Shown: in pieces, positions 48,311 through 55,708 of the stretch
Numbering within the stretch: position 1 is the first letter of the stretch
How the letters are laid out: every line of letters begins with the position of its first letter
Assembly: GCA_025352045.1 (NCBI GenBank)
Contig: JANXUD010000028.1
Coordinates: forward strand, 10,206-74,205
Origin: Gammaproteobacteria bacterium
GTDB lineage: Bacteria > Pseudomonadota > Gammaproteobacteria > Xanthomonadales > Xanthomonadaceae
Direction: 5' to 3'
DNA: 64,000 nucleotides
Position numbers and translations under genes: made by a program
Notes under the pieces: generated by a model
What the model saw: only the letters and a program-made list of their open reading frames with translations
The model's database searches: none
Told to the model about the DNA's origin: nothing

Positions 48311-49717
48311 TCAGGCGGCGCGCGCCTCGCCCGGGCCGGGAAACCAGACGTCGAAGCGCGTCTCGCCCTGCCCGGTCGGCGCCAGGCGATAGGACAGGCC
48401 GTGGCGGTTGAGCACTTCGCGCACGAACAACAGGCCGATGCCCTGCCCGCCCTTCTTGGTGGTGAAGAAGGGCGTGAACATCTGTCCTGCCGGCACGTCG
48501 CCCAGGCGGTCGCCGGAATCGATGACCGACAGGCGCGGCCGGCGGTTGTCGTCGGCCACCAGTTCAAGGTGCACGTGGCCGCCGCGGCCGGCATGCTCGC
48601 GTGAGGTCGCCTCCGCCGCCTCCATCGCGTTCTTGACCACGTTCAGCAGGGCCTGCTCCATCAGGTTGCGATCCAGCGCCTGCCGCGCAACGTCGTCGCG
48701 GCGCAGCCAGCGGATGTCGATGCCGCGCGCGCGACAGGGCTCGCGGTACAGCTGCAGGATGTCGTCCAGCATTTCGGCCACGTCGGTTGGCTGTGGCTGC
48801 GCCGCCGGCATCTTGACCACCCGGGTGAAGCGCTCGATGAACTCGCCCAGTCCGGTGTTGCGCCGGCGCACGGCCTCGATCGCGGTGCCGAAATCGGCGC
48901 TGTCGGCACCGCCCTGCGCCGAGAGGTGGGCGGCCACCGATTCCAGCACCGAACCGGTCGCCGCCACGGTGTTGTTCACTTCATGCGCGAGCACGCGCAC
49001 CAGCTTTTCATAGGTCGCGCGCTCGGAACTTTCCAGCTCCTCGGTCAGTTCCTCCACCAGCAGGAATTCGCGGCCGAAACCGCGATCGAAGAACCGGCCG
49101 CGCTGGGCGCGATAGCGGCGACCGTCGACATCGACCAGCAACTGGCTCTCGCCGGCCGGCAGGTCGTCGAGGTCGGCGGCCAGCGCCTGCGCGCGCTTGC
49201 GCGCCATGGCATCCAGGCCGTCGACGAAGCCGGCACCGCCGCCGTGCCACTCCGACAGGGCATGGCCCAGCGGGTCGCGCAGTCCGAGCAGCGCCTGCGC
49301 ACTGGCATTGAGCAGGCTGATGCGGCCGTCGAAATCGAACACCACCACCGCGCTTGGCGTGGCCTCCAGCAGGCGCTCGAGGAAACCGCGCTGCTCGCCC
49401 AGCTTCATGCGTTCCTGGTACAGCGCGTCGAGCATGTCGTTGAACAGCCGCACCAGGCCAGCCAGTTCGTCATCGGGCTGGTCCTGCAGGCGCGCGGCAT
49501 AGTTGCGGTCCTGCAGCAGGTCGCGGAATCGGCGCGCATGCTCCAGCGGCTGCATGGCCCGGCCGACCAGGCGCAGTCCGACTGCGGCGCTCGCCAACAG
49601 CAATACTTCCACGCATACCACCACCAACGGCTGCTGGCGCCAGAACCACAGGGTCACGCCCAGGAACACCAGGTGCGTGCCCAGCACGTAGCCGACCAGG
49701 CGCTGGCGCAGGTTCAC
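48311..49717 (-). CDS. sensor histidine kinase (HAMP-PAS-HisKA-HATPase)
   Basis: Two N-terminal TM segments, HAMP-like DELAGLVRLFNDM, a PAS region, H-box LVRVLAHEVNNT, and an ATPase G-boxes DSGD / GGQGIGL. GTG start overlaps the regulator stop (GTGA). Confidence 0.88.
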   Translation of the reverse strand: MNLRQRLVGYVLGTHLVFLGVTLWFWRQQPLVVVCVEVLLLASAAVGLRLVGRAMQPLEHARRFRDLLQDRNYAARLQDQPDDELAGLVRLFNDMLDALYQERMKLGEQRGFLERLLEATPSAVVVFDFDGRISLLNASAQALLGLRDPLGHALSEWHGGGAGFVDGLDAMARKRAQALAADLDDLPAGESQLLVDVDGRRYRAQRGRFFDRGFGREFLLVEELTEELESSERATYEKLVRVLAHEVNNTVAATGSVLESVAAHLSAQGGADSADFGTAIEAVRRRNTGLGEFIERFTRVVKMPAAQPQPTDVAEMLDDILQLYREPCRARGIDIRWLRRDDVARQALDRNLMEQALLNVVKNAMEAAEATSREHAGRGGHVHLELVADDNRRPRLSVIDSGDRLGDVPAGQMFTPFFTTKKGGQGIGLLFVREVLNRHGLSYRLAPTGQGETRFDVWFPGPGEARAA

Positions 49718-51129
49718 GCCTCGTCGCCCCCGCTTCCCTCGTCGCCTGCATCGCCCAGGCCGTGCTTGTCCAGCCGGCGATACAGCGCCGCGCGGCTCAG
49801 GCCCAGCGCCTTGGCAACGCGCGAGATATTGCCCTGGTGCTGCTCCAGCATGCGATCGATCATCAGCCGCTCGACTTGTTCCAGGGTCAGGCCGTCCACG
49901 CGCACGTCAGTGTGCGCGGGCGCGTCCTCGCCCGGCTCGGCGTCCAGGAAGTCCTGCTGCTCGAGCACGCGCTTGCCCGCCAGCAGCAGGGTGCGCTCCA
50001 CTGTCTGCCGCAGTTGCCGGATGTTGCCGGGCCACGACTGCGAGGCCAGCCACTGCATCGCGCCCGGGGCCAAAGTCACTTCGCCCAAGCCGTAATCGCC
50101 GGCCAGCGTGGCGACCAGGTGGTTGGCGATCAAGGGGATGTCACTGCGGCGTTCGCGCAGGGGCGGCAGCCGGATCGTGATCAGGTTGAGGCGATAGAAC
50201 AGGTCTTCGCGGAAGTCGCCGGCCGCCACGGCCTCGGCCAGTTCCCGATTGGTGGCGGACACTACGCGGATGTCCGCCTGTTCGCTCCGGCTGGCGCCGA
50301 CCGGGCGGTAGCTATGATCCTGGAGCACGCGCAGCAACTTCACCTGGTCGGCGCGGTTGAGCTCGCCGATCTCGTCGAGGAACAGGGTGCCCTCGTGCGC
50401 GCTTGCGACGTGGCCGGTGCGATCGCTGCGCGCATCGGTGAACGCGCCCTTCACGTGACCGAACATCTCGCTCTCGAACAACGACGAGGTGATCGCCCCC
50501 ATGTTGATCTTGACCAGCGGCTTGCCGGCACGCGGGCTGTTGCGGTGGATCGCGTCGGCGATGAGTTCCTTGCCGGTGCCGCTCTCGCCCAGGATCAGCA
50601 CCGGCGCGCGCGTGCGCGCCACGCGGCCGAGCGTGGACAGCACCTTCAGGATCTCGGGGTGTTGTCCAATAATCCCACGCAGGTCCAGCTGCGCGTCCAG
50701 CGCCTGTCGATCCAGCCGGCCCGCCGTTGCCGGCACCGCCAGCTCGAGCGTGGTGTTGACCAGTTCGACCAGTTGGGCGTTGTGCCAGGGCTTGGTGAAG
50801 AAATCCGCGGCGCCCACCTTCACGCCCTTCACGGCCAGGGCGATCGAGCCCCAGGCCGTCATCAGCAACACCGGTAGGCCCGGATGCTGCTCCTTGATCC
50901 GCGCAAGCAGGGCCAGTCCCTCCTCGCCGCTGGTCTGCGGCGAGAAATTCATGTCCTGCAACACCAGATCCATCGAGTGGGCGGCCAGGATGGCCAGCGC
51001 CCGGTCCGGGTCTTCGCAGGTCAGCACCTCGAAGCCGGACTGGCGCAGCAGCAGGGCCAGCGAGACGAGCACCGAGGCATCGTCGTCGACGACCAGCACG
51101 CGGTGTTTGCGGGGGACGTCGGTCATCAT
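49714..51129 (-). CDS. sigma-54-dependent NtrC-family response regulator
   Basis: Receiver (VLVVDDD...DMNF), AAA+ (GESGTGKE, GAFTDA variant of GAFTGA, ESEMFGH), and a C-terminal Fis-type HTH (ISRVAKALGLSRAALYRRL). Confidence 0.93.
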   Translation of the reverse strand: MMTDVPRKHRVLVVDDDASVLVSLALLLRQSGFEVLTCEDPDRALAILAAHSMDLVLQDMNFSPQTSGEEGLALLARIKEQHPGLPVLLMTAWGSIALAVKGVKVGAADFFTKPWHNAQLVELVNTTLELAVPATAGRLDRQALDAQLDLRGIIGQHPEILKVLSTLGRVARTRAPVLILGESGTGKELIADAIHRNSPRAGKPLVKINMGAITSSLFESEMFGHVKGAFTDARSDRTGHVASAHEGTLFLDEIGELNRADQVKLLRVLQDHSYRPVGASRSEQADIRVVSATNRELAEAVAAGDFREDLFYRLNLITIRLPPLRERRSDIPLIANHLVATLAGDYGLGEVTLAPGAMQWLASQSWPGNIRQLRQTVERTLLLAGKRVLEQQDFLDAEPGEDAPAHTDVRVDGLTLEQVERLMIDRMLEQHQGNISRVAKALGLSRAALYRRLDKHGLGDAGDEGSGGDEA

Positions 51130-52328
51130 TCGTAGTGCAACGCCTCGGTCGGGCTCATCCGGCTGGCCCGCCATGCAGGATAGAGAGCGCAGAGCACGGA
51201 TACCAGCGACATCACCGTCAGCGACACCAGCGCGGCGGCCAGGAACAGCGGCCAGCTCAGGTTTTCCCCGAACACGCCGGTGATCGGCAACTGCACCAGC
51301 AGGACCAGGCCCACCGCGATCGCCAGGCCGGTCAGCAGGAGCTGCTCGACGATGATCTGCCGGTAGATGCCGCCCGCGGTGGCCCCGATCGCCCGGCGCA
51401 GGCCAATCTCCGGGATGCGCCGGGTGGTGGACTGCCAGAGCACGCCGAACAGACCGAAGCCGACCATCAGCAGGAGGAAGGCGGCGATCACCCCCAGGAT
51501 CACCAACGGGATGACGGAGTCGTGCAGCATCGTGGTGCGCATGTCCAGCACCGGCGAGATCCGGTAGGACCAGTCGTTGCGAACCAGCTTCATGCGCTCG
51601 CTCAGGCGCGACTCGAACGCCCGGCTGGTGCCCGGCCTGACCTTCAACACGACCGTCTCCGCGCCGCGCATGCTCGACAGCGGCGAGAACCGCTTGATCG
51701 TGAAGTTGACCGGCGGCATGAACTCGCCGTGGTTGCGGAAGGCCTCGACGACGCCGGTGACGCGCATCATCGTGCGGTCCTTGCCGCTTGGCGGGCCGTC
51801 GCTGATCAGCTGGCCCACGGCCGAGCGACCGGGGAACAATGCGTCGGCCAGGCGCCGGTTGATGACCACGGGCTGCTCGGCCGCGCCCTCGTCGGAGGCA
51901 TTGAACCAGCGGCCCTCGGCAAGTTGCATGCCCAGTGTCTCGAAATACGTATCGCTGGCCTGGACGAAGTCGCTCTCGACCGACGCACCGCCCTCGGGCC
52001 GGTACATGTCGCCGCGCCAGGTCGAATTGTCGTAGAGCGGGAACGACGCAAAGCTGACCTTCTCCACTTCCGGCAGGTCCAGCAAGCTGCGGCGCAGCTG
52101 GTCGTAGAACTGCGGATCGTTCTTCGGGCCACCCTGGCTGGTCTGTTGCATCTGCACCGACCACAGCCCGGCGGGATCGAAGCCGATCGGCAGGTGGTAG
52201 AGCTGGTAGTAGCGCGCACCAGCGGCCGACACGGCGAACACCACCACGAACGCGAGCAGGATTTCCAGGCTGAGCATCAGGTTGCGCGACTTGCGCCGCC
52301 AGATCGGCTTGAGCAGGTGACGGAACAT
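51126..52328 (-). CDS. ABC transporter permease, FtsX/MacB type
   Basis: [30 protein letters not shown]..., RRIPEIGLRRAIGAT, and a C-terminal PTEALHYE. ATGA overlaps at both ends. Confidence 0.88.
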   Translation of the reverse strand: MFRHLLKPIWRRKSRNLMLSLEILLAFVVVFAVSAAGARYYQLYHLPIGFDPAGLWSVQMQQTSQGGPKNDPQFYDQLRRSLLDLPEVEKVSFASFPLYDNSTWRGDMYRPEGGASVESDFVQASDTYFETLGMQLAEGRWFNASDEGAAEQPVVINRRLADALFPGRSAVGQLISDGPPSGKDRTMMRVTGVVEAFRNHGEFMPPVNFTIKRFSPLSSMRGAETVVLKVRPGTSRAFESRLSERMKLVRNDWSYRISPVLDMRTTMLHDSVIPLVILGVIAAFLLLMVGFGLFGVLWQSTTRRIPEIGLRRAIGATAGGIYRQIIVEQLLLTGLAIAVGLVLLVQLPITGVFGENLSWPLFLAAALVSLTVMSLVSVLCALYPAWRASRMSPTEALHYE

Positions 52329-55526: not shown

Positions 55527-55563
55527 GGGCTGCAGGCATTCCTGGATGACTGCCAGGCATGTT

Positions 55564-55578
55564 GCAAGCGCCGTGCCA
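55564..55578 (-). promoter_or_regulatory. sigma-54 (-24/-12) promoter
   Basis: The minus strand reads TGGCACGGCGCTTGCA, an exact match to TGGCACG-N4-TTGCA with canonical spacing. It lies upstream of an operon that encodes a sigma-54 activator. Confidence 0.75.
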
Positions 55579-55708
55579 CACTTCAATCCCCGTCGATTGG
55601 CTTACCGATCAGTCACTTGCCCGGTTGTCGCGGCGAGCCGGAAACGACTGCATTGCACGCGGCCGAACAGCAGTGTCCGGAATCGAACACTGCGTTCGCC
55701 TGACGCCA

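Follow-up and report, generated by a model that had tools for sequence, protein, structure and literature searches.

A predicted sigma-54 operon that combines a MacAB-like pump with its own two-component regulators in Lysobacterales and Oxalobacteraceae

Six genes behind a -24/-12 element

We analyzed a stretch of 64,000 nucleotides (nt) from a gammaproteobacterial genome assigned to the Xanthomonadaceae (contig JANXUD010000028.1 of assembly GCA_025352045.1, positions 10,206 to 74,205 of the forward strand). This whole stretch is called the window below, and all positions are given in its own coordinates. Six minus-strand genes stand in a row in it, encoding a periplasmic adaptor, an ATP-binding cassette (ABC) ATPase, two permeases, a sigma-54 activator, and a histidine kinase, and in front of them lies TGGCACGGCGCTTGCA (55578-55563, minus strand), a sequence of the sigma-54 -24/-12 promoter type. 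It is likely that the six genes form one transcription unit, in which a MacAB-like, tripartite-type efflux pump and its own two-component regulators are expressed from a sigma-54 promoter under positive autoregulation.

The gene closest to the promoter encodes an HlyD/MacA-type periplasmic adaptor (54279-55526) of 415 amino acids (aa), which matches HlyD_3 and HlyD_D23 in Pfam and TIGR01730 in NCBIfam (128.6 bits, cutoff 94.9). It is followed by a stand-alone ABC ATPase of the MacB/LolD/DarD-like class (53579-54241; 220 aa; ABC_tran, 7e-35) and by two permeases, each with a MacB periplasmic core domain (MacB_PCD) and an FtsX domain: permease 1 (52328-53569; 413 aa; MacB_PCD 4e-22, FtsX 1e-16) and permease 2 (51126-52328; 400 aa; MacB_PCD 9e-17, FtsX 1e-12). 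The last two genes encode an NtrC-family sigma-54 activator/response regulator (49714-51129; 471 aa; Sigma54_activat 7e-65, Response_reg 2e-23, HTH_8 4e-13) and a PAS/HATPase_c histidine kinase (48311-49717; 468 aa; PAS_8 5.7e-6, PAS, HATPase_c 5e-13). The identities that the first-pass annotation, made from the sequence without database searches, had given to these six minus-strand genes therefore agree with Pfam and NCBIfam.

As read from the sequence, the adaptor and ATPase genes are separated by 37 nt, and the ATPase and permease 1 genes by 9 nt. The stop codon of permease 1 and the start codon of permease 2 overlap by 1 nt (TGATG), permease 2 and the activator share 4 nt (ATGA), and the activator and the kinase also share 4 nt (GTGA). 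The spacing had been described as gaps of at most 37 nt or 4-nt overlaps, which is right overall and wrong for the two permease genes with their 1-nt overlap. The adaptor starts at GTG 55526, which gives the length of 415 aa found in nearly all homologues and a conserved Met-Asp-Gln-Pro N-terminus. We rejected TTG 55586 as the start codon because the homologue length and the conserved Met-Asp N-terminus favor GTG 55526, and because the coding region would then swallow the sigma-54 promoter; with the start at GTG 55526, the promoter is intergenic. AGGAA at 55539..55543 (minus strand), 12 nt before the GTG codon, is a weak candidate for the ribosome-binding site, by sequence reading. A simple, crude scan of 47800-56200 found neither a sigma-70-like promoter nor an intrinsic terminator. 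At the far end of the row, the kinase stop codon abuts the stop codon of a convergent gene on the plus strand for a beta-barrel outer-membrane protein (about 47321-48310), with 0 nt between them (TGATCA, 48308-48313). This leaves no room for a terminator, and the convergent transcripts would overlap.

A conserved block with a conserved, predicted control region

To compare the block among relatives, as the first-pass annotation had suggested, one genome per GTDB species was scanned; 171 relatives were found, and the best 80 were kept with 10-kb flanks. These 80 loci come from Lysobacterales (Arenimonas, Pseudoxanthomonas, and others) and from Oxalobacteraceae (Undibacterium, Massilia, Duganella, Pseudoduganella, and Rugamonas). 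The adaptor itself has more than 1000 close homologues, mostly named as Arenimonas and Lysobacter metagenome-assembled genomes, and no exact match to the ATPase sequence was found in the assembly index. Among the related loci of sufficient length for a judgment, which span two orders of Proteobacteria, all but two keep the six-gene order. In one of them (L018), an open reading frame for a YafO-family toxin (14916-15314 of that locus) follows permease 2 in place of the activator and kinase genes, while the sigma-54 element and the dyad described below are kept. In the other (L041), about 1.1 kb without a Pfam match (14451-15604) lies between the permease 2 and activator genes. The gap between permease 2 and the activator is at most 31 nt, or the two genes overlap, in about two thirds of the loci.

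The surroundings of the block are not shared. The genes that flank it in the window (DoxX, Band-7, DUF1456, pirin, the beta-barrel outer-membrane protein, and AhpC) are present in none of the 80 related loci, and the most frequent flanking families reach a maximum of 23 of the 80 loci, which reflects synteny within genera only. No TolC, precursor, biosynthesis, or lipoprotein gene is conserved in the flanks of the 80 loci. A conserved block with differing flanks indicates that the six genes are a self-contained unit in changing surroundings.

The promoter element TGGCACGGCGCTTGCA agrees with TGGCAC-N5-TTGCA in full (11 of 11 positions). It stands 36 nt ahead of the GTG codon with which the adaptor gene begins, and the transcription start is predicted near 55553. 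An exact TGGCACG-N4-TTGCA promoter had been proposed here by the first-pass annotation, and the match is indeed the sole one in the window, where 0.06 are expected and where 6 of 100 shuffled sequences gave at least one. It is also the sole site in the 64 kb that agrees with TGGCAC-N5-TTGCA at 10 or more of the 11 positions, and its GG and GC doublets stand 10 bp apart within TGGCAC-N5-TTGCW. Within the 100 nt upstream of the adaptor gene, an element with at least 9 of 11 positions is present in all 80 loci; at the level of at least 10 of 11 it is present in 77 of the 80 upstream intervals (8 kb in total), compared with 38 sites on both strands of the remaining ~3.0 Mb scanned, some of them probably genuine promoters that belong to other genes. 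The family consensus of the element is TGGCACGGcgcTTGCAATA, in which the GG, CA, and TGC groups and their spacing are invariant. On this conservation we rejected a chance match for TGGCACGGCGCTTGCA, and the sequence comparison supports the -24/-12 element as a conserved promoter.

The distance from the element to the start codon differs among the loci. In 22 loci of Massilia, Duganella, and Pseudoduganella (L013, L028, L029, L036-L040, L042-L047, L055, L056, L062, L064, L067, L070, L071, and L078), the start codon of the adaptor, which begins with Met-Asp, follows the 16-bp element after 11-12 nt, and the element lies ~27 nt before position 10001 in most of them. In the remaining loci, the window included, this distance is 32-54 nt. 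At a distance of 11-12 nt, the predicted transcription start falls on the AUG or 1 nt before it, and a leaderless mRNA from a sigma-54 promoter is therefore predicted for these 22 loci. Several Undibacterium genomes also carry a second perfect sigma-54 element, TGGCACGNNNNTTTGCA (TGGCACGGCGTTTGCA in 4 of 6 loci), on the opposite strand ~9.3-9.8 kb upstream of the operon (minus-strand positions L014:351, L016:364, L022:746, L023:171, L026:1182, and L050:738). This distant element presumably belongs to another sigma-54 operon.

We aligned 81 upstream sequences by anchoring them on the sigma-54 promoter. All 81 contain the dyad TGTYCG-N4-CGRACA at 58-134 nt upstream of the promoter, and positions G1, C4, G11, and C14 of the dyad are invariant. 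The dyad scores at least 10.5 of 12 in 69 of the 81 promoters, compared with 0.9% of background windows of 200 nt. In the window, the predicted upstream activator site consists of dyad 1, TGTTCGATTCCGGACA (55674..55689, minus strand), which begins 111 nt upstream of the T in TGGCAC, and of dyad 2, TGTTCGGCCGCGTGCA (55654..55669, minus strand), which begins 20 bp after the start of dyad 1. A second, looser dyad at this fixed distance of +20 bp, or two helical turns, is found in most Lysobacterales, Massilia, and Duganella loci, and each of its columns T20, G21, C24, G25, C30, G31, C34, and A35 is common to 51-64 of the 81 sequences. There is no other tandem dyad in the 64-kb window. Tandem sites such as these are classic for NtrC-type activators, and the pair at 55689-55654 lies in the range of ~70-150 bp upstream of the promoter where activator sites would be predicted.

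Between the dyads and the promoter, the window has an integration host factor (IHF)-like site, GATCAGTCACTTG (55607..55619, plus strand), which agrees with the consensus at 7 of 9 positions. An IHF consensus match of at least 8 of 9 is present in the same interval of 42 of the 81 promoters, compared with 2.7% of the background. The site of the window, which aligns with AATCAG..CTTG in close relatives, is weaker than those of its relatives.

The pump and its two regulators

The AlphaFold2 model of the adaptor has a mean predicted local distance difference test score (pLDDT) of 82.4 and consists of an N-terminal membrane helix, a hairpin with helices at residues 107-166 and 173-230 (~58-60 residues each), and barrel domains. 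Its best fold match is MacA within the MacAB-TolC complex (9qgy_G, E 8e-22), at ~19% identity. By sequence, the adaptor is likewise closest to MacA among solved structures, permease 1 to Spr0695 (5xu1), its best match, and to MacB (5lil), and permease 2 to MacB (5lil, 5nik); permease 1 resembles the N-terminal half and permease 2 the C-terminal half of ADOP permeases. By these comparisons the pump is MacAB-like in fold with another layout, in which the ATPase is separate and the two permeases are distinct. The two FtsX/MacB-type permeases presumably form a heterodimer.

None of the curated equivalog cutoffs in NCBIfam for MacB, LolCDE, DevBCA, or the darobactin exporter is reached. For the MacB equivalog, whose cutoff is 966 bits, the scores are 70 and 54. 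For the ATPase, the best NCBIfam matches are DarD (271.5 bits, cutoff 375) and LolD (235 bits, cutoff 307.75), both below cutoff. We rejected membership in LolCDE on the LolD score and on that of lolCE (~21 bits, cutoff 362.45), and identity with the darobactin exporter DarBCD on the scores of DarD and DarC (77 bits, cutoff 450) and on the lack of conserved neighbor genes. A role in anti-phage defense was also rejected, as the PADLOC matches are to generic ABC and AAA+ proteins only.

Several known pumps share parts of this design. Both permeases have the FtsX fold and the MacB periplasmic core domain of E. coli MacAB-TolC (5nik, 9qgy), and the adaptor model has the MacA-like fold with a long alpha-hairpin. 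MacB, however, is a homodimer with a fused ATPase, whereas the operon has a separate 220-aa ATPase and two permease genes, low sequence identity to MacAB, no TolC gene nearby, and predicted control by sigma-54 and a two-component system. MacAB-like pumps with a separate ATPase and adaptor are also known from Gram-positive bacteria (Spr0693-0694-0695 of Streptococcus pneumoniae, 5xu1, and YknXYZ of Bacillus), but these have only one type of permease and lack sigma-54 control. LolCDE has one ATPase gene and two paralogous genes for FtsX-type permeases, which form a heterodimer, but it is essential and constitutive and has no HlyD-type adaptor.

The activator has every part of an NtrC-type protein, namely a receiver domain with the phospho-acceptor Asp59, an AAA+ sigma-54 interaction domain with a Walker A motif at residues 181-188, and a Fis-type helix-turn-helix (HTH) at residues 442-453. 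The GAFTDA loop reported by the first-pass annotation is present at residues 228-233. GAFTDA is a variant of GAFTGA, the loop that contacts sigma-54, and is conserved in 71 of 73 activator orthologues; in Desulfovibrio vulgaris it is listed as one of the natural variants that permit activation (PMC4641369). Equivalog assignments in NCBIfam to AtoC (385.7 bits, cutoff 714), NtrC (364, cutoff 558.6), GlrR (350.6, cutoff 763), and ZraR (322.8, cutoff 760) were rejected. No second sigma-54 activator gene is found in the window, where that of the operon is the only one.

In the kinase, a loop of 4-6 residues connects two membrane helices, which are followed by a HAMP-like linker, a PAS domain, an H-box with His245, and an ATPase domain. 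It had been labeled a HAMP-PAS kinase; the PAS part of this label holds, with a PAS domain found in all 35 orthologues, and the HAMP call is weak, since the kinase of the window, at 17.9 bits, stays below the cutoff of 25. A HAMP match at E<=0.01 is found in 8 of the 35 orthologues, and the DELAGLVRLFNDML signature is present. With so short a loop and no periplasmic sensor domain, the kinase would sense within the membrane, through PAS, or through a partner protein. His15 and Glu37, which lie inside the membrane helices (residues 1-48, encoded at 49575-49717), are invariant in the 35 orthologues, and the region around them could be a site of intramembrane sensing or partner contact.

Elsewhere in the window, a second module on the plus strand (2918-7559) has the identical four-gene layout of adaptor, ATPase, and two permeases. 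It has no sigma-54 site and no adjacent two-component genes, as the first-pass annotation had stated, but the term paralogue used there covers identities of only 21% for the adaptor, 24-29% for the permeases, and 49% for the ATPase. The minus-strand open reading frames just upstream of the second module look by eye like TsaA/TrmO-like and DUF167-like genes. The window is also unusually rich in peptidases (M43, two M13, S41, M1, and M64; genes at 489-1604, 11897-14065, 17030-18577, 24781-28566, 37026-39890, and 41621-43141). A hybrid PAS histidine kinase with a receiver domain (34074-36404, plus strand) and a Kup-type potassium transporter (29537-31570, minus strand) appear unrelated to the operon.

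Proposed autoregulation and alternative readings

Judged from the conserved sequences, the operon very probably depends on sigma-54 and on activation by the regulator that it encodes. Self-activation is the simplest reading because the activator and the kinase are the sole regulators that travel with the block. In the mechanism that we propose, sigma-54 RNA polymerase would wait on TGGCACGGCGCTTGCA as a closed complex. The kinase, which probably senses inside the membrane or via its cytoplasmic PAS domain, would phosphorylate the activator, and the activator would then bind the two dyads ~75-110 bp upstream. DNA looping, probably aided by IHF, would bring the activator to the polymerase, and ATP hydrolysis would open the promoter. 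With the regulator genes translationally coupled at the 3' end of this transcript, induction would also raise regulator levels, a positive autoregulation as at glnAp2 of glnA-ntrBC. The pump would most likely expel a toxic compound located in the membrane or periplasm via a TolC-type channel encoded elsewhere. In this scheme the transcription start, the binding activator, the feedback, the transport direction, the substrate, and the signal are what we infer from the locus, and for the direction, export is taken from family membership only. Expulsion of an external or envelope-damaging compound is favored over the secretion of a dedicated product because the block has no conserved biosynthetic, precursor, or lipoprotein neighbor gene.

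The first-pass annotation had inferred, as probable, that the activator is encoded downstream of the promoter it fires and that positive feedback gives an all-or-none export response. The gene order, the promoter, and the dyads are conserved, and positive autoregulation is the simplest interpretation of this layout. Gene order by itself does not imply an all-or-none response, since autoregulated two-component systems often respond in a graded way. The closest regulatory likeness is to glnA-ntrB-ntrC (glnALG) with glnAp2, where the structural gene also comes first, the genes of the kinase and the NtrC-type activator follow a sigma-54 promoter that is fired by this activator, the sites are in tandem, and autoregulation is positive. 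The differences are that the cargo here is an efflux pump and not glutamine synthetase, that the kinase here is membrane-bound with a PAS domain whereas NtrB is soluble, and that sigma-70 back-up promoters are not identified here.

A loop that is driven purely by sigma-54 and holds its only activator would be locked off, so a basal source of the regulators is required, which would be weak sigma-54-independent transcription. It could be supplied by read-through from the DoxX gene, which lies upstream on the same strand, or by a promoter within the operon. In the window, the DoxX gene ends 20 nt before dyad 1 and no terminator was detected between them, so read-through is possible. In Undibacterium, a terminator-like hairpin stands upstream of the dyad (L034), and a spacer of 69-122 nt before the activator gene holds a conserved cgt(t/a)TAAGATAg box, in some cases with an inserted hairpin (L009, L014-L016, L019, L021-L023, L025, L026, L030, L034, and L050; about 14390-14540). 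The hairpin before the dyad and the TAAGAT spacer together suggest an internal promoter in that genus; a simple sigma-70 scan did not call the TAAGAT box as a promoter.

These spacers, together with the locus L018 that lacks the regulators, show that the regulators need not be expressed or placed together with the pump genes, and they weigh against a single autoregulated sigma-54 unit, as do several other observations. The 64-kb window contains no rpoN gene, a TolC-like gene was found neither among the examined genes of the window nor in the conserved flanks, and the IHF-like site of the window falls two positions short of the full consensus. A residue of the HTH recognition helix (LGLSR-A/T/F/S-ALYRRL) varies together with the dyad variant, which fits a cognate pair of activator and site, but the covariation follows phylogeny and is therefore not independent evidence. 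As for expression, the window sequence is matched by DNA metagenomes from rock and sediment only. RNA runs match the Massilia/Telluria relatives L037 and L079 at 5-19% of sampled words, and those on L079 give fragmentary contigs whose matches are for the most part cross-matches to conserved motifs of ABC and AAA+ proteins.

One alternative, which we consider rather unlikely, is that the regulators come mainly from a separate, constitutive internal promoter, so that sigma-54 controls the pump genes and the response is graded, with negligible feedback on the regulators. A loop driven by sigma-54 alone has no means of starting, and glnALG has the extra sigma-70 promoters glnAp1 and glnLp. The Undibacterium spacers with their conserved box, the L034 hairpin, which excludes read-through as the basal source there, and the loci L018 and L041, where regulators and pump genes are separable, also favor an internal promoter. 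However, the activator gene of the window overlaps permease 2 by 4 nt with no sigma-70-like site or terminator found in the operon, most loci have the short gap of at most 31 nt, and the Undibacterium box went uncalled in the simple scan. It is still less probable, and indeed very improbable, that another activator encoded elsewhere fires the promoter and that the operon pair regulates other targets. Activators can act in trans, and the visible 64 kb of the genome contain one activator gene, but the dyad, the promoter, and the activator are conserved jointly in two orders while their surroundings differ, and no further tandem dyad was found in the window.

The remaining alternatives concern what the kinase reads and what the pump moves. 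The pump could be a co-sensor, with the kinase responding to how active the FtsX-type permeases are or to their conformation, as BceS does with BceAB in Firmicutes, so that expression tracks transport demand; we regard this as unlikely. BceAB is in the FtsX/MacB (type VII ABC) class, and BceRS-BceAB likewise links an FtsX-class transporter to a kinase without an extracellular sensor domain in a self-contained module for sensing and removal. The short-looped kinase with its two membrane helices and invariant His15 and Glu37, which travels with the pump genes in related loci, would suit such a role. Against it, the conserved cytoplasmic PAS domain could itself be the sensor, and the two systems differ in their parts: BceB has 10 helices, the Bce regulator is OmpR-type and sigma-70-dependent, and there is no adaptor, whereas the permeases of the operon, ~400 aa with a MacB-type periplasmic core domain and a single FtsX domain, are of the 4-helix MacB type and its regulator is NtrC-type. 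A full Gram-negative, Bce-like flux-sensing circuit, in which the kinase reads the working state of a heterodimeric MacB-type pump and drives pump synthesis via sigma-54, is in our view distinctly improbable; if true, it would be a demand-controlled efflux circuit made from parts not previously seen together. The pump might instead secrete an endogenous product (a glycolipid, lipoprotein, or peptide), as do DevBCA, LolCDE, and the darobactin exporter DarBCD. The best NCBIfam matches of the ATPase and adaptor include DarD, DarC, LolD, and DevA/DevB, and the separate ATPase with two distinct permeases is a LolCDE-like layout. These matches are well below the family cutoffs, though, the 80 loci have no precursor, biosynthetic, or lipoprotein gene conserved beside the block, and tight inducible control by a dedicated sensor would be more typical of defense or detoxification modules, which makes secretion of an endogenous product doubtful.

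In the literature searched, we found no characterized sigma-54/MacB/HlyD operon and no paper on this operon family or its sites, only a computational prediction from 2025 at the level of COGs, in which sigma-54 promoters are enriched upstream of COG0577 (FtsX-type) permeases in gamma-Proteobacteria, Opitutia, and Bacteroidia (PMC12316311). In its available text, that survey calls the enrichment the first evidence for a sigma-54 link; the statement there is a statistical one about COGs and, unlike the present description, names no operon, activator, binding site, or family (PMC12316311). Current understanding is unchanged by our analysis, as MacAB-like pumps are familiar, and so are sigma-54 operons that carry genes for their own two-component regulators. 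What the proposed autoregulated sigma-54 unit adds is a compact six-gene module for sensing and export with a full predicted control region, made up of two dyads, an IHF-like site, and a -24/-12 promoter, which is found again in no fewer than 80 species-level genomes from Lysobacterales and Oxalobacteraceae. The operon offers a concrete, testable example for the statistical claim of sigma-54 control over FtsX-type pumps, and a natural system for the study of sigma-54 autoregulatory loops and of kinases without a periplasmic sensor domain.

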